From: Desulfurococcaceae archaeon
Lineage (GTDB): Archaea; Thermoproteota; Thermoprotei_A; Sulfolobales; Desulfurococcaceae
NCBI GenBank assembly: GCA_038816475.1
Contig: JAWBAI010000005.1
Span: forward strand, 17,566 to 81,565
Reading direction: 5' to 3'
DNA length: 64,000 bases
Shown here: positions 37,208-63,475 of the stretch, one piece after another
Numbering within the stretch: position 1 is the first letter of the stretch
How the letters are laid out: each line of letters starts with the position of its first letter
Notes under the pieces: model-generated
Seen by the model: the letters and a program-made list of their open reading frames with translations, nothing else
What the model was told of the DNA's origin: nothing
Databases searched by the model: none
Position numbers and translations under genes: made by a program

Positions 37208-38608
37208 GTGAAGAATATGTCTATTCCCTCAAAGATCCTGGTACCAGCACTAGCAATTCTAATAGTTCTTGCAGCTGTTGGTGGATATCTCGCTGGATAC
37301 TACACTGGTAGACCTCCTGCTGTTGTTGAGTACAAACCACCGGAGAAGATCAAGGCTGCTTGGATATACGTGGGTCCTGTGGGTGACATGGGTTGGTCAT
37401 ACATGCACGATATTGGTAGAAGATTCGTAGCAGAGCTCTTCAAAGACTGGCTTGAAACAACCTACGTAGAGGCTGTTCCCGAGCCCAGGTTGCTAGAGGT
37501 CATAGATGACCTTGTTGCAAAGGGCTATAACGTGATATTCACAACATCATTCGAGTTCATGGATAAGACGATTGAGGCTGGTAAGAAGTACTCCAACGTA
37601 ATGTTCTTCCACTGCTCTGGCTACAAGAGGTATAGAAACGTGGGAACTTACTTTGCGGACTTATACCAGGTTTACTACTTGAACGGACTGATGGCTGGTG
37701 CTTTAACGAGGACGGGTCAAATAGGATACGTAGCAGCGTTCCTAATACCTGAAGTCGTAAGGCATATCAACGCTTTTGCACTAGGAGCAAAGGAGATCGG
37801 TGAACAACTAGGAAAGAACATAACAGTTCACGTAATTGAGATTGGAGCGTGGTATGCACCTGAAAAAGCAAGAGAAGCTGCTGAAACTCTTCGCAGGCTT
37901 TACAACGTAGATGTCATAGCTTTCACAGAGGATAGCACAGCTATAGTGGAATGGGCTGAAGCCAACGGGGTATACGTGTTCAGCCACTACGGTCCAATGC
38001 TGGAGTATGGACCTAGGTACATTGTTAGCGGTCAGCTAGTTAGGTGGGAGGTTATATACGCGGATATCCTCATCAAGGTCAAGACTGGTGTTCTAAGACC
38101 AGACAACTTGGAGAACGTAGACTACTGGTACCTCCTAAGTAGTGGAGCAGTTGAAATGGCAGCAGGTATTGATAGGAACGGTAGACCAATCTACATTAAT
38201 CCAGTATATGAAGATGTGTTCAAGAACATCAGAGTCAAAGATAAGCTAACGGGTGAGGAAATAACCCTCTACGACTTAATATGGAGAAGATACTGGCAAA
38301 TGAGAGGTGCATTCATGGTACTACCATTGCAGTTCTCAGCTCTTACTCACATGTACGAGCACATAACTCATATAACCTTAGAATGGGGTGGAAAAATAGG
38401 TAGATTACCATACCCAATAGCCGCGGAGTTCGACCCGTTCACTGGTCCGCTTAGAGGGTACTGCCTATACGATGCAGCTGCATCGTTCTCAAAGGAGTGC
38501 AAAGCTCTGGGTAAAGGAGGAATAGTAACCATACCAACAGGTGTTCGATTAACTCACGAAGACCTCTGGAACATGGACTGGTTCTTGGACTTCGTCATCA
38601 AGCGTTAG
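37208..38608 (+). CDS. BMP-family (nucleoside/purine) ABC transporter substrate-binding protein
   Basis: N-terminal anchor, YVGPVGDMGWSYMHD, IFTTSF, PEVVRHINAF. Confidence 0.92.
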   Translation: MKNMSIPSKILVPALAILIVLAAVGGYLAGYYTGRPPAVVEYKPPEKIKAAWIYVGPVGDMGWSYMHDIGRRFVAELFKDWLETTYVEAVPEPRLLEVIDDLVAKGYNVIFTTSFEFMDKTIEAGKKYSNVMFFHCSGYKRYRNVGTYFADLYQVYYLNGLMAGALTRTGQIGYVAAFLIPEVVRHINAFALGAKEIGEQLGKNITVHVIEIGAWYAPEKAREAAETLRRLYNVDVIAFTEDSTAIVEWAEANGVYVFSHYGPMLEYGPRYIVSGQLVRWEVIYADILIKVKTGVLRPDNLENVDYWYLLSSGAVEMAAGIDRNGRPIYINPVYEDVFKNIRVKDKLTGEEITLYDLIWRRYWQMRGAFMVLPLQFSALTHMYEHITHITLEWGGKIGRLPYPIAAEFDPFTGPLRGYCLYDAAASFSKECKALGKGGIVTIPTGVRLTHEDLWNMDWFLDFVIKR

Positions 38609-38616
38609 GTCACCTA

Positions 38617-38648
38617 TTTTTTTCTTGAAGACTTAACCTTCATTTTTT
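38617..38648 (+). terminator. Putative U-rich archaeal terminator/attenuator between the SBP and ATPase genes
   Basis: T7 run at 38617-23 and T6 run at 38643-48 just after the stop codon. Confidence 0.45.
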
Positions 38649-38670
38649 GCTTAAATCATCGTGAAAGGGG

Positions 38671-40206
38671 TTGGTGTTGGGTCTCAAGCCCATAGTAGAA
38701 GCAGTAAACATAACTAAGAGATTTCCCGGGGGAGTAGTAGCGTTAGATAGTGTAAGTCTCGAGCTTTACGAGGGCGAAGCAGTAGCACTTCTCGGTGAGA
38801 ACGGATCTGGGAAATCTACTCTTGTTAAAGTACTATCTGGAATATATACACCGGATGAAGGACTGGTGAAGATCAGCGGAAAAGAGGTAACTATGAGAAA
38901 CCCGAGTGATGCGATTAAACATGGAATAATTCTCATATCTCAGACACCTCAACTAGTTGAAAGATTAACTGTAGCTGAAAACCTTGCAGTTTTTCTATCT
39001 GCTCTTAAGATGAGTAAACCATTCTCGAGCATTAAGTGGATTGGAAAGTACGTTGAGAAGGAAGCTTTGAAACTCGGTATACGCGTAGATCCGTTCGCAA
39101 GGGTCCATACTCTTAGCTATACTCAAAAGCAGCTCGTGGAGATACTTAAGGCTGTGTTAGCGGGAGCACGAGTACTACTGCTCGATGAAGCTCTAACCTA
39201 CTTACCTGTTGAGGAGCGGAAGAAACTGTACAACTACGTGGTGGAGTATAAGAAGAAAGGAGGCACAGTCGTCGTTATAACACATAAGCTGAGTGAAGCA
39301 TTAGAAGTAGCTGATAGAATAGTTGTTTTAAAGGATGGTCGAGTAAGAGGTATTCTAAGGAGGGAAGAGGCCACATTAGACAATGTAAGATATTTAATGT
39401 TCGGTGAATGTGCTAGAGAAATAACCTACGAGAGACTCGTTAGTCGTAGTACTCCAGATGAGCCAGTTATAGTTGCAAAAGACCTGCGAGTTCTTGATGA
39501 TTATGGTAGAGAAGCTGTTAGAGGAGTTAACCTGGAGGTTAGAAGTGGTGAAATAGTCGGCATAGCGGGTATTACGGGGAACGGCCAAAAGGAGCTTTTG
39601 GAAGCCATAGCTGGTTTACGTAGAGTTAAAAGTGGTCGTATTTATGCTAAAGACCTTTCCTCGGGCAACTTCGTAGAAGTTACAAATAAGGGTGCACGAG
39701 TGATCCGAGAACTCGGAATCGGTGTTATACCTGAAAACATACTTCTACATGGTGTATCAATAGAAGACCCAATCGTAGTAAACTTGATTGCTCTATATCA
39801 GAGAAACGGTTTTCTTGTAGATTGGCGTAAAGCGTCTAGCTTGGCAAAGGCTTTGATCAACGAGTTGAGGATCTTAACTCGAGATGAGCACACTCCGTGT
39901 AAACTGCTTTCCGGGGGTAACTTAATGAAGGTTGTCGTGGGTAGAGAACTGATGTACAGTAGAAGTGCACTCCTCGCGTACAATCCAACGAGAGCTCTAG
40001 ACGAGGTGACGGCTATTCGTGTTAGAAAGATCATGAGTTATAAGGCGTTAAACGAGAAGCTCGCTGTTCTACTGGTCTCCGAGGACCTCGACGAGGTGCT
40101 ACAAGTTAGTAGTAAGGTGTACGTTATGAACTCAGGTAAGCTCTACGGTCCATTTGACCCAGAGCAAACTAACCGTAGTGAGATCGAGAGCTACATGGTG
40201 ATGTAA
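38671..40206 (+). CDS. Nucleoside/sugar ABC transporter ATP-binding protein (tandem ABC domains)
   Basis: GENGSGKST, LLLDE, GITGNGQKEL, LSGGN, SEDLDE. Confidence 0.93.
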   Translation: MVLGLKPIVEAVNITKRFPGGVVALDSVSLELYEGEAVALLGENGSGKSTLVKVLSGIYTPDEGLVKISGKEVTMRNPSDAIKHGIILISQTPQLVERLTVAENLAVFLSALKMSKPFSSIKWIGKYVEKEALKLGIRVDPFARVHTLSYTQKQLVEILKAVLAGARVLLLDEALTYLPVEERKKLYNYVVEYKKKGGTVVVITHKLSEALEVADRIVVLKDGRVRGILRREEATLDNVRYLMFGECAREITYERLVSRSTPDEPVIVAKDLRVLDDYGREAVRGVNLEVRSGEIVGIAGITGNGQKELLEAIAGLRRVKSGRIYAKDLSSGNFVEVTNKGARVIRELGIGVIPENILLHGVSIEDPIVVNLIALYQRNGFLVDWRKASSLAKALINELRILTRDEHTPCKLLSGGNLMKVVVGRELMYSRSALLAYNPTRALDEVTAIRVRKIMSYKALNEKLAVLLVSEDLDEVLQVSSKVYVMNSGKLYGPFDPEQTNRSEIESYMVM

Positions 40207-41343
40207 ATGCACGTGGTTGTCTTAAAGAGAAAGCAACCACTTAAATACGGTGTACTCGCTGTAATGCTACCCTCGATAATACTGGGAGTAGCTGTATTCA
40301 CGTTAATCAACTGGATCTCAGGTGCAGACCCGATCAGCACACTACAACTCATAGCAACATCCTTTGTATCTCCTATTGTGATCAAGGACGTAATACTACT
40401 AACCATGCTCGGCTACGCTTTACTAGTCTCGTTCAAAGCAGCTATTTGGAACATAGGTGGAGAGGGGCAATTCTTCATGGGTGCTCTTGCAACCGTAGTT
40501 ACAATACTGCACTTGCTACCGGAAAACCCGCCAGAAAACCAAGCACCACTCTACATGGTAGCAGGACTCTTTTTCTCCGTTGTTCTCGCATCTCTAGCTG
40601 GTGCTGCCTGGGCGTTCATCGCTGGTTTAATCAAAGCCTATGCTAAACTGGATGAAGTTCCAGTTACACTCCTGCTGAACTACATTGCATACTACTTGAT
40701 AAACTACCTAGTGTACTATCCTCTACGTGGAAGAAGAGTCTACGGTTACGTTAGAACAGATGAAATACCATCAGTGTACCGGGTAAACATACGCTTACTT
40801 ATACCAACGCCTGAGGACCCGGTTACTAGAGCACTTGTTTTCGCAGTTCAGCAGGTAATCTACTACGCCGTATGGATACTGGGTGCTCTTCTACTAGCTG
40901 TCTTGACTTGGTTTATACTGAGAAGAACTAGGATCGGCTTGTACATTCAGATCCACGGTTCAAACCCTGAGTACCTCGCTGCACTAGGTATTGACCCGAG
41001 GAAAGTAGCCATATCTGCAATCACTCTATCTGGACTACTCGTGGGCTACGCATCCACGTTCTACACTCTAGGTGATATGTTCAGAATCAGCTACCCTGTT
41101 CAAGAGGTTACAGGTGGTTATGGTTTCCTCGCTGTTCTTGTAGCATGGTTATCACTACTGGAGTTCAAGTACATTCCGATCTCAGCGTACATTGTATCAT
41201 CACTGCGGAGTGCTGGCTATGCTCTTCAAATAGGTGGATTAGGCGCCATGGAGCAAATGCTAATTCTCATTGGAGTAGTACTTCTCTTCTCTTCTACACT
41301 CAGATTCTTAACTGAGTACGAGGTGAAGGTGAGATTCAAGTGA
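40207..41343 (+). CDS. Nucleoside ABC transporter permease
   Basis: WNIGGEGQ, DEVPVTLLLNY. Confidence 0.9.
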   Translation: MHVVVLKRKQPLKYGVLAVMLPSIILGVAVFTLINWISGADPISTLQLIATSFVSPIVIKDVILLTMLGYALLVSFKAAIWNIGGEGQFFMGALATVVTILHLLPENPPENQAPLYMVAGLFFSVVLASLAGAAWAFIAGLIKAYAKLDEVPVTLLLNYIAYYLINYLVYYPLRGRRVYGYVRTDEIPSVYRVNIRLLIPTPEDPVTRALVFAVQQVIYYAVWILGALLLAVLTWFILRRTRIGLYIQIHGSNPEYLAALGIDPRKVAISAITLSGLLVGYASTFYTLGDMFRISYPVQEVTGGYGFLAVLVAWLSLLEFKYIPISAYIVSSLRSAGYALQIGGLGAMEQMLILIGVVLLFSSTLRFLTEYEVKVRFK

Positions 41344-42269
41344 TCGAGTTGTTGAGCACTGTTTTACTCTCGGCTATTCCAGCTTTTGTTTTCATATACC
41401 TTGTATCTCTGGGTCACAGTATTGCAGAGAAGTCTGGTGTACTGAACTTAGCTGTGGATGGCATGTTCTTTCTATCAACAAGCATAGCTGTACTGGTAAG
41501 CTACAATGTATACGCTTCAGCGGGGTTCACTGAGGTACCTGCTGCTGTCTGTGGAACACTAGTAGCAGCAACTGTAGTAGCATTGATCGGCGCGTTGATG
41601 GCGGTGATTCTCACGGTTTTCCCAGTGAACCATGCAGCGTTCGGTTTATCACTGATGTTCCTTGGATATGGACTCGGTGTAATGGCTGGTTATCCTGTTA
41701 GACTCCGGGTGGGTGTTATTGAGCCGTTCACGTACCCCGCTGATCTCACAGTTTACCTTGCACTGCTCTCATTATCGGTGGGAGTATCAATCGCTGCTCA
41801 CATCCTTATGTCTAGAACATCCCTTGGAGCATCCATTAGAGCTGTTGGTGAAAAACCGCACAGTGTTCTAGCCATGGGAATGAGCGTTGCTAAGATCAGG
41901 GTTATAGCGTGTTTAATAGGTTTCTTCATACTGGGCGTAGGAGCCTCCATGTACTCACTACTATGGAGTAGAATGTGGGGTCCAAGAGATTACCTGCTTG
42001 GCTACGGATGGATAGCTTTCACAATAGCCTTGGCTGCTGGTAGACACCCACTACTGCTACTGGCTTTATCCCTAGTGTTCGGAGGAATACTGGGTAACAG
42101 GTACACAATACAGGTTCTTCTAGGAATACCACCAGACATATCACACATGATACCCTACATCTCAGCACTAGTAGCAATGCTAATATACAGCACCACGAGA
42201 TTAAGAGAAGTACTAGCACCACCTGGAGCTCTCGGAAAAGTATTCTACAAGGAGGAGAGAACAGTATAG
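41340..42269 (+). CDS. Nucleoside ABC transporter permease
   Basis: EKSGVLNLAVDG, RAVGEKP, GYGWIA, PY...APPGALG. Confidence 0.9.
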   Translation: MIELLSTVLLSAIPAFVFIYLVSLGHSIAEKSGVLNLAVDGMFFLSTSIAVLVSYNVYASAGFTEVPAAVCGTLVAATVVALIGALMAVILTVFPVNHAAFGLSLMFLGYGLGVMAGYPVRLRVGVIEPFTYPADLTVYLALLSLSVGVSIAAHILMSRTSLGASIRAVGEKPHSVLAMGMSVAKIRVIACLIGFFILGVGASMYSLLWSRMWGPRDYLLGYGWIAFTIALAAGRHPLLLLALSLVFGGILGNRYTIQVLLGIPPDISHMIPYISALVAMLIYSTTRLREVLAPPGALGKVFYKEERTV

Positions 42270-42355: not shown

Positions 42356-44419
42356 CTAGTGCTTTCTTTTCTTCACGATCAGCGAGTAGGTTACGAATGT
42401 AGCAGTCGCTGTAGCTACTACTACGGTAATATACCATGGTTCAGGTATTGGTATAGGTTCCTGAAGCTCAGGGTAAGATTCGGATACTAGGTGAACAACG
42501 AGATTACCTCCTACATCTCCTTCAAGTGTAACTATTGCAATCCTTCCTGGTTGACCTGGGTTTGCTCGCAGTACAGCTACGTATAGTGGAGTTTCGTGAA
42601 CACCCTTAACAGTGGATACTGGTAGTACCCATGGTTCAAGAGTATCTGTGCTCGTATCATAGAAAGCAACGTAGAGGTTCCTAGTACCTGTTTCATCCGT
42701 AATAGCATACGGTATAATGTATTTACCAGAGCCCTCGTCGAATACTACACGAACATAGCTAGCGTTCCCATCAGCTAGCACAAAGCTTCTAACCACTCCA
42801 CTCGTATCTAAGAGAGATAAGTTAACCCATCCAACAGCACTCCAAGCAACAAGCCAAGTAGAGTAGTTACTTGCAATCCACGGATAGAAAGTAGTTGGTA
42901 CACCACGATCAATTAATGCTCCTCTCGATACGATGGGAGACGGTGGCTGTAAATCTATGATCGCGTAGTCAAGGCTCGTAGAACTAGCATTGTACACTGT
43001 TAACACGTAACGACCTTGTCCAAGGATTTTACTGTAGATCGATGGATAAAGGTTGAAGTACGAATAGTAATTCCCACCTGATACGTACAGATCCGGTTCT
43101 GGACCCTGATCTCCTTCTCTATCATCGACAGAATACTGAGTTATGAAGAATCCTAAGGTTGGATCAGACCTGCCCACGATTACCACAATATCATGACCAG
43201 TAGTAGCAGTTACATTTCTTGCTAGTAGCGTGAAGTTTCTTGTTAATGGATCGTAGATTAGACTACCTATGATGTCTACTCCAACGCGTGGCGTAGTATC
43301 GGGGGAGGATGTGACACCTCCACCTAATGGAACAAGAAGGTATCTTCCTGTGTACACGGGCGTTTCGTTCAAGAGGTTAATGGTGTACCGAGCCACAGCT
43401 GTGGTTTGAGATGAGTGTCCTACTACCCACCACCTGGTTTCATTGGAATGAATAAAGAACGTTACCGTGGGATGATACTGGTAACTCGCACCATAAATGT
43501 GCATCGGCGTTGTTGGTTCTCCAACGATTGGTACATAGCTGTACAACACAGTTCTAAAATATGTAGTAGTACCGACCACTCTTGTGAAATTCGTCCATGC
43601 AACTAGGAACCCTGTTTCATTAGCTGCAATATCTATCATTCCTCGGAACACGTTTGCGTAGATCAATGAACCCTTATCTGGACTAAACGCGTATTGATTA
43701 ACGATTTCTCCCTCATTATTCAAGATGTATACTCTCAAAGTATAGTTCGGGGCACCTTCTGAGAATGCTATTCCAAGATACTGCTTGTCGGGTGTTACAG
43801 CTACTCGGATACCCCATGATGTAGGGTACTGAATGGTCCCAGTGTATATCGACACTTTTTTTACTGTGGGAAGCTTCTCAGACTCTACTGAGTACTCCAG
43901 GTACAAGCTCCACTTACCTGGGTCGAAGTCGTCGTCTTGGAAGTCCTGGATCACAGCGTAGCCGTTATCAACCATCCACTTGTTAACGTTCAATATGTGT
44001 GTTCTGTTCACTCTTACGTAGAGTACTGCTACAATTCTTCCGTAGTTATCTACAAGTCCACTACTGCATCCAGCTTGTCTTGAGTAGTTGGCTATATCCA
44101 AGTACACTGTGTTGTTGTATGCTGCAAGCAGGTTTATCAGTGCATTCCGCGCTTCCTCTCCCTCTGGTGTATTTAGTTCGGGTGCATCTATGTCTGCTAA
44201 TCTAACAACTGTTCTGTATTCACCTGCAACACACACAGGTGGTGAAATATGCACTGTGTCTCCGTCGACAACCCTGGTTACTACTACGCGTGCATGTGGA
44301 AAATCAGGGTGAAAACCAACTCTGTTGCTGGATGTTAGTAGAATTGCTGGTTGAGCTAGTAGTAGCATGATTAGTGATAGTATTATTAAACCCTTGATCC
44401 TCAACCACAACACCTTCAA
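42356..44419 (-). CDS. Secreted, surface-anchored thermonuclease (SNase domain plus large beta-rich domain and PIPEP-TM-basic C-terminal sorting signal)
   Basis: Signal peptide; VVDGDT, VRLADIDAPE, DNYGR, MVDNGYA; C-terminus PIPIPEPW-TM-KKRKH. Confidence 0.85.
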   Translation of the reverse strand: MKVLWLRIKGLIILSLIMLLLAQPAILLTSSNRVGFHPDFPHARVVVTRVVDGDTVHISPPVCVAGEYRTVVRLADIDAPELNTPEGEEARNALINLLAAYNNTVYLDIANYSRQAGCSSGLVDNYGRIVAVLYVRVNRTHILNVNKWMVDNGYAVIQDFQDDDFDPGKWSLYLEYSVESEKLPTVKKVSIYTGTIQYPTSWGIRVAVTPDKQYLGIAFSEGAPNYTLRVYILNNEGEIVNQYAFSPDKGSLIYANVFRGMIDIAANETGFLVAWTNFTRVVGTTTYFRTVLYSYVPIVGEPTTPMHIYGASYQYHPTVTFFIHSNETRWWVVGHSSQTTAVARYTINLLNETPVYTGRYLLVPLGGGVTSSPDTTPRVGVDIIGSLIYDPLTRNFTLLARNVTATTGHDIVVIVGRSDPTLGFFITQYSVDDREGDQGPEPDLYVSGGNYYSYFNLYPSIYSKILGQGRYVLTVYNASSTSLDYAIIDLQPPSPIVSRGALIDRGVPTTFYPWIASNYSTWLVAWSAVGWVNLSLLDTSGVVRSFVLADGNASYVRVVFDEGSGKYIIPYAITDETGTRNLYVAFYDTSTDTLEPWVLPVSTVKGVHETPLYVAVLRANPGQPGRIAIVTLEGDVGGNLVVHLVSESYPELQEPIPIPEPWYITVVVATATATFVTYSLIVKKRKH

Positions 44420-44499: not shown

Positions 44500-45372
44500 C
44501 TAGGATTTGTACTTGAACTCTGATACTGTTGCAACGTAGAGTGCTACAAGTATTAATCCACCACCGAGAACCTTGTACAAGGCTAGTTCTTCAAGCTTCA
44601 TTAAAACCGAGAAAACCAGTGCGAAAACAGGCTCTAGAAGAAACACCAGTGCAGCTGTTTCAGGTGAAACGTACCTCTGTCCTAGAACCTGGAAGAAGGT
44701 TGCACCAATTGAGCAAACCAGTGCAAGGTACGCAATGTAGACGAGTGCTTCCGTTGATAACTGTGGATTGTGCAGAATTGATAACGGAGCGTAGAGTAAG
44801 CCCACAGCAAAGCAACCAAGGAGAAACTCGTACATTGAGGAACCCTTGAACCTGGCTATTAGGAGGATCTGAGCTGCCCAAGCAAAGGTAGCAGTAAACA
44901 CCAGTAGTTCACCGACCCCGAATCCACCAGCAGGTGTTGTCAGAGCGTAGAGACCAGTTATTGCTAAAGCAAGGCTCACGAGATCCAGCATCGTATACCT
45001 CTTCGCTACGAACCCAGCGTACAGGTGAACGTGGATTGTGCTTAAACCCGTGATGAAGGCACTTGTGGATGGATCTACGTAGGCTGTTCCCGCTGCTTGA
45101 AGACAAAGCCCTACAGTGTACGCTAACCCGGTGATGAATCCTCGTTTAAAGCTCAACGAGTCAAAGGACCCGTTTGCTATTCTGCGAGCAACCAGTGGCG
45201 TAAGAACCAGTATTGCTAAAGCTGTCCTCGCAAAAGTATAGGTGTAAGGATCTACTTCACCCATGGATAGCTTTATGAAAGCAAAGGATGTTCCCCACAA
45301 AATCGTCGTTGTAATTAGAGAAAGCAAACCAAGAAACTTAAGCTTACTACTGGTGCTTCCCATAAGGTACAC
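44500..45372 (-). CDS. DMT/EamA family transporter
   Basis: ILWGTSF, SAFITGL, LLEPVFA; ~10 TM helices. Confidence 0.92.
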   Translation of the reverse strand: MYLMGSTSSKLKFLGLLSLITTTILWGTSFAFIKLSMGEVDPYTYTFARTALAILVLTPLVARRIANGSFDSLSFKRGFITGLAYTVGLCLQAAGTAYVDPSTSAFITGLSTIHVHLYAGFVAKRYTMLDLVSLALAITGLYALTTPAGGFGVGELLVFTATFAWAAQILLIARFKGSSMYEFLLGCFAVGLLYAPLSILHNPQLSTEALVYIAYLALVCSIGATFFQVLGQRYVSPETAALVFLLEPVFALVFSVLMKLEELALYKVLGGGLILVALYVATVSEFKYKS

Positions 45373-45435: not shown

Positions 45436-46401
45436 TCACCCGGGAATTATTCTTGTTCCAGCTTCTCCTCTGAGAGCTTCAGCTGCTTGCTTAAGATGAG
45501 CTATTACTGCTAGTTTACCACCGTTCTGTATGAACCTGACGCCGGCTAGCACCTTTGGACCCATGCTTCCAGGTTTGAAGTGACCTTCCTTGTAGTACTT
45601 TAGTGCTTCGCTCACCGTTAGAACTTTGACTGGTTTAGCGTTGGGTGTTCCGTAGTCTAAGTACACGTAGTCAACGTCTGTTAGTATCATGAGAACATCT
45701 GCTCCAAGCGAACTAGCCATTCTCTCTGCTCCAAGGTCCTTGTCTATTACAGCTTCCACTCCGCTGAGCCTCCCGTTTTCCTCAACAACTGGTATTCCTC
45801 CTCCACCATCCGCTATTACAATGAAGCCTTTTTCAACCAGTGTTCTAATAGCCTCGATCTCCACTTGGATAAGCGGGTCAGGTGATGGTACGACTCTTCT
45901 GAATCCACCGCGAGGATCAGGCTTAAAGATCCACTTGTATTCTGCTGCTAGCTTATCAGCCTCCTCCTTCTCGTACCATGGACCAATGTACTTTGAGGGG
46001 TCTTTGAAGTCGGGGTCATCTCTTCTAACGAGAGTTTGTGTAACAACGGTGACTACGCCCTTAACCACGCTGGGGATTAGTTCTTTCTCTTTGAGCTTGT
46101 TGTAAAGTGCTTGCTGAAGTATGTAGCCAAGCCAACCCTGAGTCATAGCACCAGCTATGTCCAGGCTCATTGGTGGAATGTTCTTGTGCTTAAGTCCAAG
46201 CACCATTAGTTCAGCGAGTATACCAACCTGTGGTCCATTACCGTGGGTTACAACAACTCTGTAGCCTTCCTCAACGAGGCTTACAACAGCTTCTGCTGCT
46301 CTGTACGCGTTTCGCCAGTAGTCCTCAACAGTACCCTTCTCGCCTTTCGACTGAAAAGCGTTTCCACCAAAGGCTATAACAACTAATCCTTTATTCTTCA
46401 A
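45436..46401 (-). CDS. arcC: Carbamate kinase
   Basis: AFGGNA, THGNGPQVG, AMTQG, RRVVPSP, GGGGIPV, EAVIDKD, GSMGPKV. Confidence 0.97.
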   Translation of the reverse strand: MKNKGLVVIAFGGNAFQSKGEKGTVEDYWRNAYRAAEAVVSLVEEGYRVVVTHGNGPQVGILAELMVLGLKHKNIPPMSLDIAGAMTQGWLGYILQQALYNKLKEKELIPSVVKGVVTVVTQTLVRRDDPDFKDPSKYIGPWYEKEEADKLAAEYKWIFKPDPRGGFRRVVPSPDPLIQVEIEAIRTLVEKGFIVIADGGGGIPVVEENGRLSGVEAVIDKDLGAERMASSLGADVLMILTDVDYVYLDYGTPNAKPVKVLTVSEALKYYKEGHFKPGSMGPKVLAGVRFIQNGGKLAVIAHLKQAAEALRGEAGTRIIPG

Positions 46402-46478
46402 CCATTCACACCCCTTGGTTCAAAACGTGTGTTAAATACAGATCGTAGACCTTATAAAGGTAAACCATGAGCGTATAA

Positions 46479-47747: not shown

Positions 47748-47815
47748 CCGTGATCCCTTGTTACAGCGAACACTGCTCTGGGAATTAAAAATAAACTGTG
47801 AAGGTAGAGTTAAAA

Positions 47816-52804: not shown

Positions 52805-52805
52805 T

Positions 52806-54641: not shown

Positions 54642-54691
54642 CTGTGGGTTTTAACCATAGGTTTAAAATCGCGGGGTTATATATGTAGACG

Positions 54692-56113: not shown

Positions 56114-56373
56114 CCGCCCATCTCAGGTGTTATAAACGTGACGCGATCACCATCCTTGAGCTTAGTTGACGGATCAATTGTTGGAACACCATTGATGTAC
56201 GTAACGAAAACGTAATGCCCCTCGATAAACCTTCTGAACAAGTCTGGGTGAATTTCATCACCGAGTTTTTTAAGCAAGTCGAGTACAGTGCTTTCCTCGG
56301 GTAGTTCAACTTCAACGAGTGATCTCCTAGCGATTTCACTCGCTCTACCTAGGAAAACAACAGTGACCTTCAA
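56110..56373 (-). CDS. MoaD/ThiS/SAMP ubiquitin-like sulfur carrier
   Basis: Beta-grasp pattern, LKDGDRVTFITPEMGG with C-terminal GG; likely start TTG 56373 after GGTGG RBS. Confidence 0.9.
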   Translation of the reverse strand: MKVTVVFLGRASEIARRSLVEVELPEESTVLDLLKKLGDEIHPDLFRRFIEGHYVFVTYINGVPTIDPSTKLKDGDRVTFITPEMGG

Positions 56374-56454
56374 TGTTAAACCACCGGGAACACTTGGAAC
56401 AAGCTTATAACTCGACCCCTGTCTATCTATACTATTAGTCAAGGGGTGAATTAA

Positions 56455-57519
56455 ATGCCCGCTTTGAGAAACCTTGTTCGTGAACTATCAGGTAAAGATC
56501 TGATATCTACACTCGAGTGGAGTGACGAAGAAATCGACATTGCTCTCAAGCTATCAGCTGAGTTCAAGAACATAGCACACTACTACGGTACAGAGGCTAT
56601 TCCCAAGGTTCTAGCAGGAAAAGTATTCTACATGCTGTTCTTCGCTCCATCAACGAGAACTAGAGCGGCTTTCGAAACAGGAATGTATCTACTGGGTGGA
56701 CACGCGGCATACATAGATGCAACAACAACGAGGTTAGCTGTTGGGAAAGAGGAGAAGGTTGGAGAGGATATTAGAGACGTAGCTGCAATGTACGATGTCT
56801 ATGGGCATGGACTGGGGATAAGGATCCTCGATAAGGCTATAGACTACTTGTACGGAGTTGGTAACAAGTACATCAGGGAAATGGCTAGGGTTGCAAAGAT
56901 CCCCGTTATAAACATGGCAGATGACATGTTTCATCCAACCCAGGGATTGGCAGACATATTCACATTCATCGAGAAATTCAAGAACCCGCGTGGCAAGAAG
57001 TATGTTATTATGTGGGCTTACAGCCCGGAGATCAGGGGCTGGTGCAGTGTTCAGGAGGACATGGTCCTGTTTCCGAGATTCGGCGTGGATGTGGTAATAG
57101 CTAGACCACCGGGTTTTGACCTTGACCCCAAGCTCGTTGAGAAGGCTAGAGAAATCGCCAAGGAGCAGGGCGCTGTTTTCGAAGTTACAGACAACCTGAG
57201 GGAAGCACTAGCTGGAGCTCACGCTGTTTTCCCAAGAAACTGGGCTTCACCAACTCTGGTTCAGCTCGGCTACAGCAAGTTCAAGGACGAGGAGCTCAAG
57301 ATATACGAGAAGTACAAGAACTGGAAGGTTACAAGAGAACTAATGGACCTCATGGACAAGCATGGTGTACTAATGCATGTTCTACCCATATTCAGAGGTT
57401 ACGAAGCAGACGAAGATGTAATAGACGACCCAAAGAGGTCGATCATATATCAGCAAGCGGAGAACGGTCTTTGGACTAAAATGGCTGTTCTAGCCCTTAC
57501 AATGTACGGTGTTAAGTAG
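56455..57519 (+). CDS. Carbamoyltransferase, YgeW/knotted transcarbamylase-like (paralog 1)
   Basis: STRT, HPTQ, MWAYSP, HVLP, QAENG. Confidence 0.88.
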   Translation: MPALRNLVRELSGKDLISTLEWSDEEIDIALKLSAEFKNIAHYYGTEAIPKVLAGKVFYMLFFAPSTRTRAAFETGMYLLGGHAAYIDATTTRLAVGKEEKVGEDIRDVAAMYDVYGHGLGIRILDKAIDYLYGVGNKYIREMARVAKIPVINMADDMFHPTQGLADIFTFIEKFKNPRGKKYVIMWAYSPEIRGWCSVQEDMVLFPRFGVDVVIARPPGFDLDPKLVEKAREIAKEQGAVFEVTDNLREALAGAHAVFPRNWASPTLVQLGYSKFKDEELKIYEKYKNWKVTRELMDLMDKHGVLMHVLPIFRGYEADEDVIDDPKRSIIYQQAENGLWTKMAVLALTMYGVK

Positions 57520-57648
57520 AAACTCAAAGACCCACTGAGTCTCGGCAAAATAGAACATTTTTTTATCAAATCTCTCCTCTACGAAGCAATTTATGAAGGA
57601 GTTAGGTAAAGGGTATACTAGTAAAAACTGATTAGGAATGCGGAGTTA

Positions 57649-58857
57649 CTACGTGAACTTGATGGCTCTTGTTGGACATACTGTTGTGCAGAGACCGCAA
57701 CCGTAGCACTTGGTAAGGTCTACAACGGCTACTCTTCTACCCTGTTTCCCTGTTTCAAAGTGTATAGCGTTGTAGTTGCAAACCTGTTGGCAGAAGCCGC
57801 AGCCTATGCATCTCTTCTCGTCTACTCTGGGGGGTAGAGCCCACGTTCTGAGAGGTTCTAGTTTAAGGTACTTTAGGCTCATACCCTTGATGTCCAGGAT
57901 GCTACTGTATCCGTGACGTTTAAGCCAATCCTCTAGTTCTCTGAGTATGCGCTTGAAAACACCTGGTCCCTCTATGAGCGCAGCTGTGCATATTTGTACT
58001 GCTGACGCGCCAACCATGAAGTACTCAACTACGTCTACACCTCTGAAGATTCCTCCAACACCGATAACCGGTAGTTTCGTGTTCTTAGCGATCTCGGCTA
58101 CGATTGCTAACGCTAAGGGCTTTAGCGCTGGGCCACTCATCCATCCGTAACCACCGGGTCCTCCGACTATGGGTAATCCTGTTTCAACGTCTATGCTTAA
58201 AGCTGGACCAATGGTGTTTGTTGCAACTAGTCCATCTACTCCCACGGATTCAAGCTCTTTAACCAGCTCGGGTATGTTCGGAGTGAACGGACTCAGCTTG
58301 GCGAAGATTGGAATGGAAACGGATTCCCTGAGAGCCTTAGCAGCTTCAACTATGGGTTTGTAGTCTCTACCAATGTAGTGTGTGGAAAACTCAATCGCAT
58401 CTACACCAGCTTTCTCCACCTTGGGGCCCAGTAACGCGAGCTCTTCTGGTTTGTAACCTATGCTTGCGAACAGTGCAACACCGTGTTCTCTGCAGTACTT
58501 GACCATAGCAGGGTACTCGCGCTCGAGGTAGTGCTCAGCTGGAATATCACTCCACAACTCGGCGTTCAGAACAGCGTAAATGAACCTTGAGTTACCAGCA
58601 TCCACGGAAACAACCTGAACTTCACCTGGTTTCACTGTTCTGAGAACGTGGAACCTTCCAAGCCCTCGGTCTACAACACCCATCGTTGGTCTGGGAACAA
58701 TAGCTGGAACCACGCTAATAGTCTTAGCAACAACTCCACCCACATCGTTATCCACCAGTAGCTTCACGGATTCGAAGTCGCGAGAAATAGGACAAGCAGC
58801 GTTCATCAACGGATTCTTCAACCTGAAACCTGCGATTTCGACTGATAGATCAACCAC
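57649..58857 (-). CDS. Dihydropyrimidine/dihydroorotate dehydrogenase-like FMN protein with C-terminal 2x[4Fe-4S] domain (PreA-like)
   Basis: NPLMNAA, AKT, KLSP, TNT, SGPALKP, GASAVQICT; CIGCGFCQQVC and CYGCGLCTTVCP. Confidence 0.88.
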   Translation of the reverse strand: MVDLSVEIAGFRLKNPLMNAACPISRDFESVKLLVDNDVGGVVAKTISVVPAIVPRPTMGVVDRGLGRFHVLRTVKPGEVQVVSVDAGNSRFIYAVLNAELWSDIPAEHYLEREYPAMVKYCREHGVALFASIGYKPEELALLGPKVEKAGVDAIEFSTHYIGRDYKPIVEAAKALRESVSIPIFAKLSPFTPNIPELVKELESVGVDGLVATNTIGPALSIDVETGLPIVGGPGGYGWMSGPALKPLALAIVAEIAKNTKLPVIGVGGIFRGVDVVEYFMVGASAVQICTAALIEGPGVFKRILRELEDWLKRHGYSSILDIKGMSLKYLKLEPLRTWALPPRVDEKRCIGCGFCQQVCNYNAIHFETGKQGRRVAVVDLTKCYGCGLCTTVCPTRAIKFT

Positions 58858-58915
58858 GAGTTACACCTTTGTAGGCGTTGAATACAATTCATCGACAGGG
58901 ATATAAACTTTGTGT

Positions 58916-60301
58916 TTATGCTTTCAAATAGTCGATCTGGTATCTACCACTGCTTAGCAGCTTATCCCAGAGCCTCTCAACAACCCTGTGGACGTACTCT
59001 ACAGCCTTCTCCTCGTCAACCCCCAGAACTCTTCTATCCCTCATGACCACTCTTCCGTTGACGACAACGGTTTTCACATCCTTACCACTAACGGTGTTAA
59101 CGAGGTGAGCGTAAACAGTTTTCTCGTTCACCGGTGTCGGAGGATGCTCGGGTTTCAACACAACGATATCGGCTTTTTTACCCGGCTCTAAGGAGCCTAG
59201 CTCGTTCTCCACGTGGAACATTTTCGCAACGTTGACTGTTGCCATTTCTACAACCTGCATGAGTGTTATAACCCTTGGATCCCTGTTCCAGACCTTGTGT
59301 ATCAGGTACGCAGCTCTCATGTTCTCGAAGTGGTCAAAAACATAGCCATCGTTTCCTAGTCCAACGTTGATACCCATTCTCAACATCTCTGGAACTCTTG
59401 CAACACCAACAGCGTTCAACATGTTGCTCATGGGGTTGTGAGCCACGTGAGATCCTGTTCTCCTGATCAACTCTAGTTCGTCCATGGTTGTGTTCACCGT
59501 GTGTACAAGGATCACGTCATCTCCTAGGAAGTTCAGCTTGTACATTCTCTCAACGGGTCTTAAACCGTATCTTTCAATGTTGTGGTATACGTCCACTAAT
59601 CCCTCCTCGGTGTGAATAGCAAGCAAAGCCTTGTACTTGTTTGCTAGCTCACGAGCCTTGATGAAGAGGTCGTCAGATACGGTAAAGCTAGCGTGGAGGT
59701 ATATTGCTCCCTTCACGAGCTTAGAGGGATCAAAGTTGTTCTTGAGAATAAACCTCTCGTTTTCTTTTAAACCTCTAACTCCCTCCTCTAAGCTGCGCCT
59801 CTGGGTTGCCTCAAAGGATAGGTATCCTCTTATACCAACCTCGTTGACGGCTTTCTCAATGTAGTCCAAAACACCCTCTATGGAGTTTGGAGCACTTATG
59901 TTATCGAAGAAGAAGGTGACTCCCGATTTAACGAAGAGGAGACTACCCAGTAGTGCCGATGCATACGCATCTTCGTGCGTTAGTAGTACATCAAGAGCCC
60001 ACCATATTCTCTGAAGATTCTGCTGAAAATCGGTGGGTGCTTCGATCTTCGAAAACCAGGGACTCCCAGTGATTAAAAGTCCGTAGAAGTGCGTGTGAGC
60101 ACACATAAATCCCGGTGTTACAATGCTTTTTCTAGCATCAATGTACTCTTCTGCTATGTACTTGTCCTTACCATCACCCACACCAACATCAACTATTCTC
60201 TCACCTGAAACAGCAACGTAGCCGTTTCCGATGACCCTTCTCTCGCTGTTCATTGTTACAACAAGTCCATTTGAAACAAGGATGTCGACTCTTTCTCTCA
60301 A
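58916..60301 (-). CDS. SsnA-like amidohydrolase
   Basis: HTHFY...DFQQNLQRIWWALD (SsnA-type), HASFTVSD, HTEEG, HNPMSNMLNAVG, GNDG. Confidence 0.85.
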   Translation of the reverse strand: MRERVDILVSNGLVVTMNSERRVIGNGYVAVSGERIVDVGVGDGKDKYIAEEYIDARKSIVTPGFMCAHTHFYGLLITGSPWFSKIEAPTDFQQNLQRIWWALDVLLTHEDAYASALLGSLLFVKSGVTFFFDNISAPNSIEGVLDYIEKAVNEVGIRGYLSFEATQRRSLEEGVRGLKENERFILKNNFDPSKLVKGAIYLHASFTVSDDLFIKARELANKYKALLAIHTEEGLVDVYHNIERYGLRPVERMYKLNFLGDDVILVHTVNTTMDELELIRRTGSHVAHNPMSNMLNAVGVARVPEMLRMGINVGLGNDGYVFDHFENMRAAYLIHKVWNRDPRVITLMQVVEMATVNVAKMFHVENELGSLEPGKKADIVVLKPEHPPTPVNEKTVYAHLVNTVSGKDVKTVVVNGRVVMRDRRVLGVDEEKAVEYVHRVVERLWDKLLSSGRYQIDYLKA

Positions 60302-60422
60302 GAACTCACCCTTAGGTTATGTTTACTCCGAATTGCGTATATATATTGTTTAACTCTGATGCCAGGTGAGGAAGAAGAGTTGAGAGGAATATCTAATGAA
60401 AAAGTGATTGCTAGTAGATGTT

Positions 60423-61496
60423 TTAATCTCCCATTACCATTGCCATCACAGCTTTCTGAACATGTAGTCTGTTCTCTGCTTCCTCGAAGTAGAGGCTCTT
60501 CTCGTACTTGTCCAGCACTTCGTCTGTAACTTCTTGACCACGGTCAGCTGGACCACAGTGCATGTAGTATGGTTTCCCGGCTTTCTCCAGCCTTTCGACT
60601 GTTACTATCCAGTCCTTGAACTTGTCCTGGTAAGCTTTGGCTCCCTCTTTATCCACGAAGGTGTTGTAAGGTGGGAAGAACCCCTTTGGGCTCCAGGCTT
60701 TCGGGTATACTAGGAAAGCTCCTTCGAACGCTTCATCCATGTTGTGTAGTATTTTGAACTCGCTACCCCAGTACTCGGAGTACTTCTTTATCCTCTGCAC
60801 TACTTCGTCCATTAGCTCGAAGCCGGGTGGATGAGCTAGGTAAACGTCTGCTCCCAGTAATGCAAACATTGAGGCAACATCCTGTGGTACAGCAAGTGGC
60901 TTTAATCCTCCACTGTAAGCGTAGCTAACAACAATTTTCTTACCTCTGAGGTCCTTGGGCCAGCCAAGTACCTCCATAGCGGCCATTGCGTCAGCAAGTG
61001 CTTGGAAGGGATGCCATATGTCATCCTCCATGTTTAAAACCGGAACCGATGACCACTTGGCGAACTCTTCGATAACCCTGTGACCTCGACCAATTATCCA
61101 CTTGGCGGCATCTCCGTATATTCTTATAGCTATACCGTTTCCATATCTGCTTAGAACTCTGGCAACATCGCTTATAGCCTCTGTTTGATACGGGATCATG
61201 TCCTCGGGTAACGTGGGTGTGTAAACCTGGTCTGGGCTTATGTATATGGCTTGTCCACCAAGCTGGTACATACCTGTTTGAAAACTGTTCCTTGTTCTAA
61301 GGCTCTTATTGTAGAATATGAGGTACAGTGTTTTACCATCAAGCCAGTTTACCTTCCTAATACCTCGGTGGTACATCTCCTTGAGTTCTCTAGCAGCCTG
61401 CAGAACCTTTAGGATCGTATCAAGATCGTATTCGTAGTTGGAAATCCAGTGCTTACCGTGGAGATAACCCACAAACCAGGGTTTATCTCTGGGCAT
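60423..61496 (-). CDS. Carbamoyltransferase, YgeW/knotted transcarbamylase-like (paralog 2)
   Basis: SLRT, HPFQ, SYAYSGGLKPLAVPQ, YPKAWSP, HCGPADRG, EAENR. Confidence 0.88.
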   Translation of the reverse strand: MPRDKPWFVGYLHGKHWISNYEYDLDTILKVLQAARELKEMYHRGIRKVNWLDGKTLYLIFYNKSLRTRNSFQTGMYQLGGQAIYISPDQVYTPTLPEDMIPYQTEAISDVARVLSRYGNGIAIRIYGDAAKWIIGRGHRVIEEFAKWSSVPVLNMEDDIWHPFQALADAMAAMEVLGWPKDLRGKKIVVSYAYSGGLKPLAVPQDVASMFALLGADVYLAHPPGFELMDEVVQRIKKYSEYWGSEFKILHNMDEAFEGAFLVYPKAWSPKGFFPPYNTFVDKEGAKAYQDKFKDWIVTVERLEKAGKPYYMHCGPADRGQEVTDEVLDKYEKSLYFEEAENRLHVQKAVMAMVMGD

Positions 61497-61580
61497 ACAC
61501 TAACACCAGCTATCACATCATGTTAAGGTACTTTGAGTTTAAAAATGCGATTCTCGGGACCTGCTGCTTGTTCACGTTGA

Positions 61581-61844
61581 CTAGGAAAGGTTTACGACTT
61601 CTATACCCATGTTCTCGAGTAACTGCTTGATAAGCGCGTAGTCCAGCTCACTAAGGCATTTATCAAGTTTAATTTCTGCTTGCAATCCACCCTCCTCTAC
61701 CACGGGTGATCCACTGAAGAAAACAACAGGTTTATACCCCTTCTCCATGAGGAGATCGCTGAGTTCTCTGACCACGTAGGTTACTGCAACACTACTCCAT
61801 GCTCTCTTCAAAACTATTGAGTTTCTACTAACCTCAGCACGCAT
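61581..61844 (-). CDS. Small hypothetical protein within the purine cluster
   Basis: 87-aa ORF with ATG, purine-rich leader and upstream TATA-like element. Confidence 0.6.
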   Translation of the reverse strand: MRAEVSRNSIVLKRAWSSVAVTYVVRELSDLLMEKGYKPVVFFSGSPVVEEGGLQAEIKLDKCLSELDYALIKQLLENMGIEVVNLS

Positions 61845-62146
61845 AAATACCCACTTGTTTTAAACCTTGTTAGGGAAGATGCAGGTTATATATTATTCGG
61901 GAGCTACAATTTCCGCGAACGAACTCAAGAGCGCTGAAGCATGCAAACTCTCTCAGGAATGTGAGTGACTATCTGCGTATCAATGGTACCAAAAAGTAGT
62001 TCACCTCTTCTGGTTCTCTTTTTGCCCTGTTTACATCATTTAGCACTCATTGAATCCCATCGCTCGGGAAGTAGCATACAGCATCCCTACTACTAACTTT
62101 ACCCCGGTAAATAGCTTGAATATTTTAGTTAATTAAGACCTTGAGT

Positions 62147-63475
62147 TTACTTGCGAAGCAGAATTGAACCAATGTATACTCCTGAGCCGGGTTTACCCAC
62201 GAGTTCACCCTTCTCAATAACAAGGTTTCCACGAACGATCGCGTACCTAGGATGACCGTAGACCTTCAAACCCTCCCACGGTGTCCAATCCACCTTGTGG
62301 TGGTGTGTTCTGTGCGATATTGTTCTCGGGTTTCTAACATCCAGGACAACCAGGTCTGCTTGACTACCGGGTGCTATTGCACCCAACGTAGGGTACAAGC
62401 CGAGTAAGCGTGCGGGATTCTCCGAGAAGACCTTGATGAAGGTTTCAAAGCTTATTCTACGCTCCATAACACCGTAGGTATATAGAAACGGGCCCATCAC
62501 CTCGAGGTTTGGTATACCACTCCAAGCACTCCACACATCCTTTTCCTTCATCTCCCTTGGGCATGGTGCGTTGTCACTAGCGTAGATATCGACAACTCCT
62601 CTCGCGATTCCTCTCCACAGGGCTTCTCTATCCTCGCTTGTTTTAAGCGTTGGAGCCATCTTCAGGTACGTTCCGTACTTAACACTATCCTCCCTTGTGA
62701 AGTAGAGGTAGTGCGGGCATGTTTCAGCTGTGATCCCAGTACTCAGCCTCTTCAGGTACTCAACAGCTTGAACACCCTCTTTGCTCGAGAGATGTGCTAT
62801 GTGAACCCTTGCTCCTACATCAGCAGCTGCTAATCCTACTCTCATAATAGCCGATGCTTCAGCGTAACCAGTTCTGCTCATGTGGTAAGCTAGTATGCTG
62901 TTGGAGCTTCTATGCTTCTCCTCGTAGTAGTCTACGAGGCCATCGTCTTCGGCGTGAACGATGAGAACAGCGTTGTTGTCCCTTACCTTCTCCATGATCC
63001 GGGGTACAGCTGATTCGTCCACTTTGAAGGGTCTGCAGGTGAACATCTTGAAGGTTTTAACACCGTGCTTTGCGAGAAGGTCAATGGACGCAATGTTGTC
63101 TCCTCTGAGGAATCCACCGGTTACACCGTAGTTAATGTAGGATTTCCTAGAGGCTTCGTTTATCTTGTGGTAGAGTGCACCGAGGTTGTCAACGTGGACT
63201 CTCAGAGGCATATCCACGATGGTTGTTATGCAACCGTAGAGAGCAGCAAGACTACCTGATTCCCAATCCTCGTTAACCGCGTACTCTGGGTCGTAGACAT
63301 GAGCGTGAACATCTATTCCACCCGGTACAACGGGGAGACCTTCTCCGTCAACCACGACATCCGCAGGCTTCTCTAGCTTAGATACGGACTTGATGTACCC
63401 GTCCTCAACCAGGATAGATCCCTCCACGAGCTCTCCATTGATTGGTATCCTAACGTTTCTTAGGAGAAGCGTCAT
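62147..63475 (-). CDS. Cyclic amidohydrolase (hydantoinase/dihydropyrimidinase/allantoinase-like, HyuA-like)
   Basis: DVHAH, DMP, TFKMF (carbamylated Lys), HAED, HIAHLSS, ETCPHYL, SDNAP, WTPWEG. Confidence 0.9.
   Translation of the reverse strand: MTLLLRNVRIPINGELVEGSILVEDGYIKSVSKLEKPADVVVDGEGLPVVPGGIDVHAHVYDPEYAVNEDWESGSLAALYGCITTIVDMPLRVHVDNLGALYHKINEASRKSYINYGVTGGFLRGDNIASIDLLAKHGVKTFKMFTCRPFKVDESAVPRIMEKVRDNNAVLIVHAEDDGLVDYYEEKHRSSNSILAYHMSRTGYAEASAIMRVGLAAADVGARVHIAHLSSKEGVQAVEYLKRLSTGITAETCPHYLYFTREDSVKYGTYLKMAPTLKTSEDREALWRGIARGVVDIYASDNAPCPREMKEKDVWSAWSGIPNLEVMGPFLYTYGVMERRISFETFIKVFSENPARLLGLYPTLGAIAPGSQADLVVLDVRNPRTISHRTHHHKVDWTPWEGLKVYGHPRYAIVRGNLVIEKGELVGKPGSGVYIGSILLRK

Follow-up and report, generated by a model that had tools for sequence, protein, structure and literature searches.

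Does the reductive urate pathway, worked out in 2025 and, as far as the main texts of the reports describing it go, in gut bacteria only, have an archaeal counterpart? The question is raised by an island of 21 open reading frames (ORFs; 87–799 amino acids, both strands) at positions 37208–63475 of a 64 000-nucleotide stretch of DNA, analysed as a whole and referred to here as the window, which is represented by contig C5 of a 1.15 Mb, 92% complete assembly of a Desulfurococcaceae archaeon (GCA_038816475.1). An initial annotation, made from the sequence alone, had listed for this island an ABC importer, an XDH-family enzyme, deaminases, SsnA-like and hydantoinase-like hydrolases, two carbamoyltransferases and two pyridoxal phosphate (PLP) enzymes and had read it as an archaeal, rewired urate pathway; the listed genes are present as ORFs and were recovered with Pfam and NCBIfam profiles, which were used to call families and were judged against curated cut-offs. 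All functions given here are inferred from homology, gene context and distribution.

In the bacterial pathway, XdhD/DOPDH reduces urate to 2,8-dioxopurine (PMC12507026; bioRxiv 10.1101/2025.04.24.650524), and the dearomatising reductase is YgfK, the PydA-like UacX in C. difficile or a luciferase-family (LLM) enzyme in Chloroflexota (PMC12507026). SsnA and HyuA open both rings to give 2,3-diureidopropionate; the ureido groups are removed by YgeW, with carbamate kinase (CK) making ATP, and by YgeY, with UacY able to stand for YgeW; and YgeX converts diaminopropionate to pyruvate and ammonia (PMC12507026; bioRxiv 10.1101/2025.04.24.650524). Ferredoxin has been proposed as the electron donor of clostridial UacX (PMC12507026), and a dehydrogenase clade, 'X1', was linked earlier to neighbourhoods containing hyuA, ygeW, ygeY, ssnA, xdh and yqeA (Barba et al., 2013; PMC4016543). 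The main texts of the two pathway reports mention neither archaea, threonine synthase nor cysteine synthase. No published archaeal version was found in our literature search, although the supplements of both reports, which it did not cover, may list archaeal members.

From the comparisons set out below, we consider it probable that the island encodes anaerobic purine catabolism by a modified reductive urate (2,8-dioxopurine) pathway. A Bmp-type ABC system would bring in nucleosides or bases, adenine deaminase and a second amidohydrolase would strip the exocyclic amino groups, and the XDH-family enzyme would determine which ring positions are oxidised, in the direction of urate and 2,8-dioxopurine. 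The ring would be dearomatised by a ferredoxin-type UacX reductase and then opened by an SsnA-like hydrolase, with a cyclic amidohydrolase (Hyd) opening the second ring to give 2,3-diureidopropionate. Two carbamoyltransferases (CT1 and CT2) would phosphorolyse the ureido groups to carbamoyl phosphate, from which CK would make ATP, and a ThrC-family enzyme, perhaps with a CysK-like partner, would convert 2,3-diaminopropionate to pyruvate and ammonia.

The core genes are inherited as one unit

Each core protein was used as a query against 41 genomes of the same order, and a genome was scored as carrying the island when it held an SsnA-like orthologue at ≥ 57% identity (19/41). The same 19 genomes hold all of the SsnA-like, UacX-like, CT1, CT2, ThrC-like and Hyd genes, and no orthologue of any of these was found in 20 others of the 41; incomplete relatives G001 and G011 (78% and 62% complete) carry parts of the island. 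UacX-like, CT1 and ThrC-like orthologues were each present in 19/19 island genomes and in G001 (ThrC-like in 0/20 island-lacking genomes), and Hyd orthologues in 19/19 plus G001 and G011. Matches at the CT2 tier were obtained in 19/19, seven of which were confirmed as CT2 orthologues (67–87% identity). The XDH molybdenum (Mo) subunit followed in 18/19 (not G020), a CysK-like protein in 17/19 plus G011 and, alone among the island-lacking genomes, G007, and a MoaD-like protein in 17/19 plus G001 and in 0/20 island-lacking genomes, which hold remoter paralogues of ThrC, CysK, ornithine carbamoyltransferase (OTC) and the amidohydrolase. These relatives are kin and not independent, so the 19-versus-20 pattern stands for a few gains and losses and not for 39 trials.

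Gene neighbourhoods were compared over 40 kb in ten relatives, where the genes stay clustered with their order and orientation shuffled (e.g. G006, G019, G022, G026 and G027). The core genes are one co-inherited unit whose grouping is far beyond chance, and they are co-conserved across genera and families; the lack of co-conservation that the initial annotation had named as fatal to its reading was not seen. It is hard to credit, against this background, that the island holds no pathway at all and merely places a housekeeping threonine synthase, cysteine synthase, dihydroorotase and CK beside an XDH and deaminases of purine salvage. The ThrC-like protein does exceed threonine-synthase cut-offs, Hyd that of pyrC_multi, the CysK-like protein comes near the cysKM cut-off and pyrimidine biosynthesis genes lie 30 kb upstream; however, these particular paralogues are restricted to island genomes, other paralogues being near-universal, and the clustering survives rearrangement, across families and domains.

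Close orthologues of the SsnA-like protein occur in Desulfurococcus mucosus, Staphylothermus hellenicus, Thermogladius, Thermosphaera and Zestosphaera, and near-identical DNA was found mainly in hot-spring metagenomes. Two odd habitats were recorded for positions 45436–63475 of the window: an insect gut metagenome (X15; word share 0.42, contigs mostly 95–99% alike) and a manure metagenome (X18; word share 0.19).

Proposed substrate supply, ring reduction and ring opening

The reductase gene (57649–58857, minus strand) encodes 402 amino acids, in which domain search found an FMN-binding DHO_dh domain and two [4Fe-4S] clusters but no domain for binding NAD(P)H, and adjoins the gene for the SsnA-like amidohydrolase (58916–60301, minus strand). 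Its best NCBIfam match is PreA (NF006183; 189 bits), and with Hyd also matching dihydropyrimidinase, the pair could be taken for reductive pyrimidine catabolism, in which a PreA-type dihydropyrimidine dehydrogenase and a dihydropyrimidinase are followed by decarbamoylation. The PreA score is, however, far under the cut-off of 335. By direct comparison the reductase is 40% identical to UacX of Cetobacterium (260 bits; 33–40% across UacX proteins) as against 28–30% (about 140 bits) for annotated PreA proteins, and the Cetobacterium cluster that holds this UacX, under the name '4Fe-4S binding protein', is annotated with dpaL, YgeY, D-aminoacylase, ssnA, guaD, XDH and hydA. In a tree of 14 sequences the archaeal reductases and UacX proteins, those of bona fide uricolytic Cetobacterium and Clostridium clusters and of Anaerolineales clusters, formed one clade (99/98) with PreA outside, so that a grouping with PreA, the outcome that the initial annotation had held against itself, was not obtained. 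The assignment of the reductase to the UacX type and not to PreA is thus supported, at the level of sequence. Since XDH and adenine deaminase are moreover co-inherited with it, and pyrimidines yield one ureido group where two transferases are encoded, we regard a pyrimidine route as very improbable.

For the SsnA-like protein, SsnA was the best family (TIGR03314/NF005540) at 365 bits, compared with 263 for the next and a cut-off of 444. A FastTree analysis of 95 sequences placed the Desulfurococcales proteins in one group with a few others, including a Haloarcula protein. Its sister (SH-like 96) is a clade on a long stem in which 56 bacterial SsnA representatives, that of E. coli among them, come together. 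Identities between the window proteins and E. coli pathway proteins are 28–39%. Public names for this family are amidohydrolase or MTA/SAH deaminase and, like those of the CT2 family and the cluster PLP enzyme given below, seem consistently wrong.

The initial annotation had called Hyd (62147–63475, minus strand) hydantoinase-like, but the protein scores similarly as dihydroorotase, allantoinase (282 bits) and hydantoinase, the last being the lower, passes just one cut-off, that of the pyrC_multi domain, and is 28% identical to E. coli HyuA. A separate Hyd paralogue on contig C7 scores higher still for the dihydroorotase domain.

Upstream of these steps, the Bmp-ABC system comprises a Bmp/PnrA-family substrate-binding protein (37208–38608), a double ABC ATPase (38671–40206) and two permeases (40207–41343 and 41340–42269), all on the plus strand and called with Pfam and NCBIfam. 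It is likely an importer of purine nucleosides or bases, and the type recurs in the clusters of G006, of 4/5 distant Thermoproteota genomes and of Haloarcula pNG700. Adenine deaminase (52806–54641, minus strand) exceeds its cut-off (TIGR01178, 513.6 bits versus 472.5) and lies within the cluster in G003, G006, G010, G019, G022 and G027 and in distant families. The product of 54692–56113 (plus strand), placed by Pfam and NCBIfam in the ATZ/TRZ/deoxyadenosine-deaminase group of amidohydrolases, is by homology a probable second purine deaminase; its relatives adjoin XDH genes in many bacterial loci.

The XDH-family enzyme has three subunits, all encoded on the minus strand and assigned with Pfam and NCBIfam: a Mo subunit of 799 amino acids (47816–50215), a 2Fe-2S subunit of 183 (50212–50763) and an FAD subunit of 299 (50751–51650). 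The position equivalent to Arg880 in the active site of bovine XDH was compared as a guide to substrate; it is Trp in the window enzyme and Tyr and Arg in two orthologues, and gave no clue. Many relatives, with or without the island, have a second locus in which an allantoinase-like amidohydrolase lies between two XDH paralogues, with identities to the window Mo subunit of about 48% and 35% (G019:C1:1141910-1149369; G022:C4:114937-121080; G005:C7:11796-19322; G031:C41:99630-106300); of this locus the window genome yielded only the amidohydrolase paralogue on C7. Mutation of selD abolishes XDH and DOPDH activity in C. sporogenes (bioRxiv 10.1101/2025.04.24.650524). No SelD over its cut-off was found in six of six island genomes, the window genome among them, which agrees with the initial annotation that selenium-maturation genes are lacking, although an XdhC/YqeB-like gene does lie on another contig of the assembly. 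The same annotation had seen no YgfK, YgeY or YgeX, and this holds for the 92% complete genome as a whole, in which no orthologue of YgfK, of YgeY or of YgeX was found.

These enzymes could instead degrade another N-heterocycle (a purine isomer, a pteridine or a modified tRNA or cofactor base) by the same logic, without 2,8-dioxopurine as an intermediate. Canonical SsnA is the sister group of the SsnA-like clade and does not contain it, the XDH has a clade of its own, the core proteins are under equivalog cut-offs, G020 keeps the core without XDH, and 7/19 genomes have three decarbamoylating enzymes, more than diureidopropionate needs. Against this, the adenine deaminase that is over its cut-off and the purine-type Bmp transporter are co-clustered, two ureido-cleaving transferases suit a 2,8-dioxo ring, and the UacX, YgeY and YgeW-side relatives belong to the urate pathway; we therefore hold another substrate to be unlikely and retain the reductive urate pathway as the preferred reading.

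Proposed removal of the ureido groups and the terminal PLP enzymes

CT1 (56455–57519, plus strand) and CT2 (60423–61496, minus strand) have the OTCase fold and are 36% identical to each other. The initial annotation had described both as YgeW-like; on this, profile scores and tree differ. OTC, N-acetylornithine carbamoyltransferase (AOTC) and putrescine carbamoyltransferase (PTC) models and structures give the top hidden Markov model and PDB scores, AOTC being the closest solved structures for CT2, and both proteins score higher with OTC/AOTC models than with YgeW; all of these scores are under cut-off (192–202 bits for OTC versus cut-offs of 281–306). In a tree of 27 sequences, on the other hand, CT1 and CT2 form one clade (96/99) with the YgeW group, whose members are the E. 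coli enzyme and the transferases encoded in two bacterial SsnA clusters. Outside this clade are aspartate carbamoyltransferases (ATCases), ArgI of E. coli and five OTCs from crenarchaea. The motifs for binding ornithine in OTC are DxxxSMG and HCLP. When aligned to solved OTCs and AOTCs, CT1 and CT2 keep the carbamoyl-phosphate motifs and are altered at the ornithine-binding positions, which read NWASP/HVLP in CT1 and KAWSP/HCGP in CT2. Tree and motifs support the view that both are YgeW-side transferases and not OTCs. The CT2 family is publicly named ornithine or N-acetylornithine carbamoyltransferase, including in metagenome-assembled genomes labelled Nezhaarchaeales and Hadarchaeaceae.

Catabolism of arginine, citrulline or agmatine via ornithine or putrescine carbamoyltransferases and CK would account for those top scores, and CK is common to island-lacking genomes with a normal OTC. 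The scores nevertheless stay under the cut-offs, the substrate motifs are changed, the crenarchaeal OTCs form a clade of their own with ArgI, to which the arginine-catabolic grouping that the initial annotation had feared would have brought CT1 and CT2, and the island encodes no deiminase; an arginine-type route is scarcely plausible. Fermentation of allantoin or oxalurate is somewhat less far-fetched, though still improbable. Hyd would then be an allantoinase, as its 282 bits with that model allow, and the CTs would be ureidoglycine and oxamate carbamoyltransferases feeding CK, a use that two CTs and a kinase fit and that has a precedent in Rubrobacter xylanophilus, where a ureidoglycine carbamoyltransferase (UGTCase) is encoded with an adjacent CK (PMC4016543). 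Such a route, however, needs no reductase–SsnA pair, no ThrC-like enzyme and no YgeY, all of which are co-inherited here; neither CT groups with ATCase-like sequences, and the organisms come from anoxic hot springs.

Removal of both ureido groups within a reductive urate pathway thus remains the favoured role for the transferases. YgeY orthologues are present in 7/19 island genomes and nowhere else among the 41 relatives, and a YgeY-family protein (359.5 bits versus a cut-off of 321) adjoins the ThrC-like gene in G019, G024 and G027. This presence of YgeY inside related islands, together with the trees and the co-inheritance, bears out the reading as a rewired archaeal purine/urate pathway. 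In the window's genus and three sister genera (12/19 island genomes), YgeY has been lost and both transferases kept. The sole M20 relative in the window genome is a 32%-identical paralogue that is common to island-lacking genomes, and no D-aminoacylase of UacY type was found in that genome (92% complete). As it has neither kind of hydrolase, both ureido groups would leave via carbamoyl phosphate, giving two ATP per purine and not one. CK (45436–46401, minus strand; TIGR00746, 378.8 bits versus 358.25) is the sole copy in the genome, and relatives having CK likewise have one copy each; the gene is often outside the island and is in the cluster in G019, G020, G023, G026 and G027.

The ThrC-family protein (46479–47747, minus strand) is a fold-II PLP enzyme. 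Its distribution and gene context cast doubt on a role as threonine synthase. No ThrB over its cut-off was found in the window genome. In Haloarcula, Anaerolineales and Actinomycetes, too, the SsnA clusters include ThrC-family genes; this family supplies the sole PLP enzyme of two clusters without YgeX, which makes it the leading candidate for the conversion of diaminopropionate. The ThrC proteins of these three clusters form one clade (100/99); those of the Desulfurococcales islands form a separate clade that joins it at only 53/26. Rooting this tree with YgeX and E. coli ThrC led to long-branch artefacts, and those sequences were removed. The cluster PLP enzyme carries the public name threonine synthase (L032 15096-16355).

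The second fold-II PLP enzyme, which is CysK/CBS-like (51791–52804, plus strand; cysKM 315 bits, under the cut-off of 344), has its gene beside that of the ThrC-like protein in three distant genomes as well as in G019 and G027, and by this recurrence may share the diaminopropionate step. Orthologues in G016 (C14:11737-12744, TAA) and G026 (C60:235-1215, TGA) have one in-frame stop each. A role as an XDH maturation factor was considered, the two genes being adjacent in the window's family and both missing from G020, and lost weight because the CysK-like gene sits with ThrC-like and CT genes in distant families and in locus L034. The initial annotation had offered a plausible substitute for each missing gene; this was only partly right, the best assigned being UacX for YgfK, a type known from C. 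difficile, and the ThrC-like enzyme for YgeX.

The remaining ORFs contribute less. The MoaD/ThiS-like small protein with a Gly-Gly C-terminus (56110–56442, minus strand; Pfam, NCBIfam) probably starts some 21–24 codons inside the ORF, as orthologues align only from residues 21–24; as listed, the ORF nearly abuts CT1, divergently. An 87-amino-acid ORF (61581–61844, minus strand) gave no family match; in G022 the same interval, from Hyd to CT2, contains an ORF that is 44% identical to it. A 133-amino-acid ORF, also without a family match (51715–52116, minus strand), is antisense to the CysK-like start and probably no gene. Two further members had been proposed, a nuclease and an EamA transporter. 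The 687-amino-acid product of 42356–44419 (minus strand) has an SNase domain by Pfam, but a weak one (32.9 bits), and 44500–45372 (minus strand) encodes an EamA/DMT transporter by the same profiles; with the former kept in 0/10 and the latter in 1/10 of the 40-kb neighbourhoods, both appear to be neighbours whose membership of the island is doubtful. Genes of pyrimidine biosynthesis occupy the minus strand upstream: PyrD (26975–28015), a PyrK-like gene (27870–28625), a phosphoribosyltransferase (28618–29232) and an OMP decarboxylase (29410–30084). The genome therefore has its own PyrD, distinct from the island reductase.

Weight of the evidence and comparison with known systems

Related clusters were found well beyond the order. 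SsnA-like matches at E ≤ 1e-90 were obtained in 37/401 sampled genomes of the phylum and are concentrated in the window's family (14/16) and in one distant family (16/17). In five genomes of distant families (G064, G245, G234, G179 and G419; loci L139–L148) the SsnA-like gene is paired not with UacX but with an LLM-class oxidoreductase that is 53–57% identical to that of the Haloarcula cluster (L032 12314-13348). Here CT2, CysK-like, ThrC-like, CK and CT1 genes make up a tight block, accompanied by XDH, adenine deaminase, Bmp-ABC genes and the SsnA-like/LLM pair. On pNG700 of Haloarcula marismortui, XDH is encoded together with a D-aminoacylase, a Zn hydrolase, an LLM oxidoreductase, a nucleobase symporter and two Bmp proteins accompanied by ABC genes; 'thrC' and hydantoinase-like and SsnA-like genes are also there. 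A scan of contigs for SsnA-like loci returned at least 80, most of them generic deaminase relatives, with three informative (L034, L036 and L106); no Desulfurococcales were among the matches listed, and the scan is not a survey of Thermococcales. At Anaerolineales locus L034, SsnA (557 bits versus 444) and YgfK (971 versus 835) are over their cut-offs and are accompanied by CK, two CTs (one ATCase-like, one YgeW-side), a ThrC-like gene and a remote CysK-like one. In Actinomycetes, one locus combines ssnA with XDH, YgeY, a CT of the YgeW side and a ThrC-like gene.

Several observations weigh against a reductive urate pathway. The SsnA-like protein, CT1, CT2, the UacX-like protein and XDH are all under curated equivalog cut-offs, whereas the ThrC-like protein passes those of threonine synthase (NF006050, 332 versus 303; TIGR00260, 209 versus 167), and with a homoserine dehydrogenase in the genome a biosynthetic role for it is conceivable. 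The window assembly has one XDH-family enzyme, encoded at the single XDH-family locus found in it, where C. sporogenes needs two (bioRxiv 10.1101/2025.04.24.650524), and a tree of 13 sequences gave this XDH a clade to itself, apart from both XdhD and XdhA. The 99% complete genome G020 keeps the core without any XDH match. The CT tree was built without AOTC, N-succinylornithine carbamoyltransferase (SOTC), PTC or UGTCase references, and since 7/19 island genomes have both CTs as well as YgeY, the second CT is no simple replacement for YgeY. CK, which the initial annotation had taken as part of the island, is present and over its cut-off but is not island-specific, being found in 34/41 relatives including 14/20 that lack the island. 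Finally, one metatranscriptome library covers the island (all 30 bins) with contigs 85–95% identical, which may be DNA carry-over; a second RNA-labelled run gave only ten short matching contigs on it. As an observation on its own, G020 retains the SsnA-like, UacX-like, CT1, CT2, ThrC-like, Hyd, YgeY and MoaD-like genes and is without a CysK-like orthologue.

With these points taken into account, the reductive urate pathway is still the probable function. A bolder version, that hyperthermophilic archaea ferment purines independently of selenium, that two YgeW-related transferases double the ATP gained from carbamoyl phosphate and that a ThrC-family enzyme, recurring in haloarchaea, Chloroflexota and Actinomycetes, replaces the diaminopropionate ammonia-lyase, is put forward tentatively, and in its entirety it may well prove wrong. 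If it is true, decaying nucleic acids in anoxic hot springs would provide purines as a fermentable source of energy and nitrogen, and work on the gut would have understated the age and the modularity of the pathway, there being three types of reductase, ureido groups removed by hydrolysis or by phosphorolysis, and terminal PLP enzymes of two kinds. Selenium would not be an intrinsic requirement, and the widespread annotation of the transferases, the SsnA-like proteins and the PLP enzyme would be corrected. The prediction can be tested directly, as island-bearing species exist in culture (e.g. D. mucosus, S. hellenicus and Thermogladius).

Among known systems, the uricolytic cluster of C. difficile and Cetobacterium (XdhD, UacX, SsnA, HyuA, UacY, YgeY and YgeX; PMC12507026) resembles the island in having a UacX-type reductase beside an SsnA-family hydrolase, and each also encodes a cyclic amidohydrolase, an enzyme of the XDH family, and deaminases and a transporter for purines. 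The island differs in lacking UacY, YgeY and YgeX, with two YgeW-side transferases and CK instead, and in having ThrC-family and CysK-like PLP enzymes and a three-subunit XDH, with SelD not found. The E. coli locus ygeW-ygeX-ygeY-hyuA-yqeA/ygfK-ssnA-ygfM-xdhD (PMC12507026; bioRxiv 10.1101/2025.04.24.650524) follows the same logic, with ATP gained through a carbamoyltransferase and carbamate kinase; by comparison, the island has UacX for YgfK, two transferases for YgeW and YgeY, and a ThrC-family enzyme for YgeX, its SsnA-like protein is of a sister lineage, and the bacterial selenium trait (SelD) was not found in 6/6 archaeal genomes.

Locus L034 of Anaerolineales shares with the island two transferases, CK and ThrC-like and CysK-like genes beside SsnA, but its SsnA is canonical, its reductase is YgfK and one transferase is ATCase-like. 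The distant Thermoproteota and Haloarcula have an LLM-class oxidoreductase in the place of UacX; the Haloarcula cluster is like the island in its Bmp-ABC, XDH, ThrC, hydantoinase-like and SsnA-like genes and unlike it in having hydrolases (D-aminoacylase and Zn hydrolase) and neither transferase nor kinase. The Rubrobacter system, like the proposed one, relies on a catabolic transferase by which a ureido group from a purine becomes carbamoyl phosphate and so a source of ATP; its enzyme, however, is ATCase-like and serves an oxidative allantoin route, whereas the island CTs are YgeW-side and are encoded with a reductive ring-opening pair.

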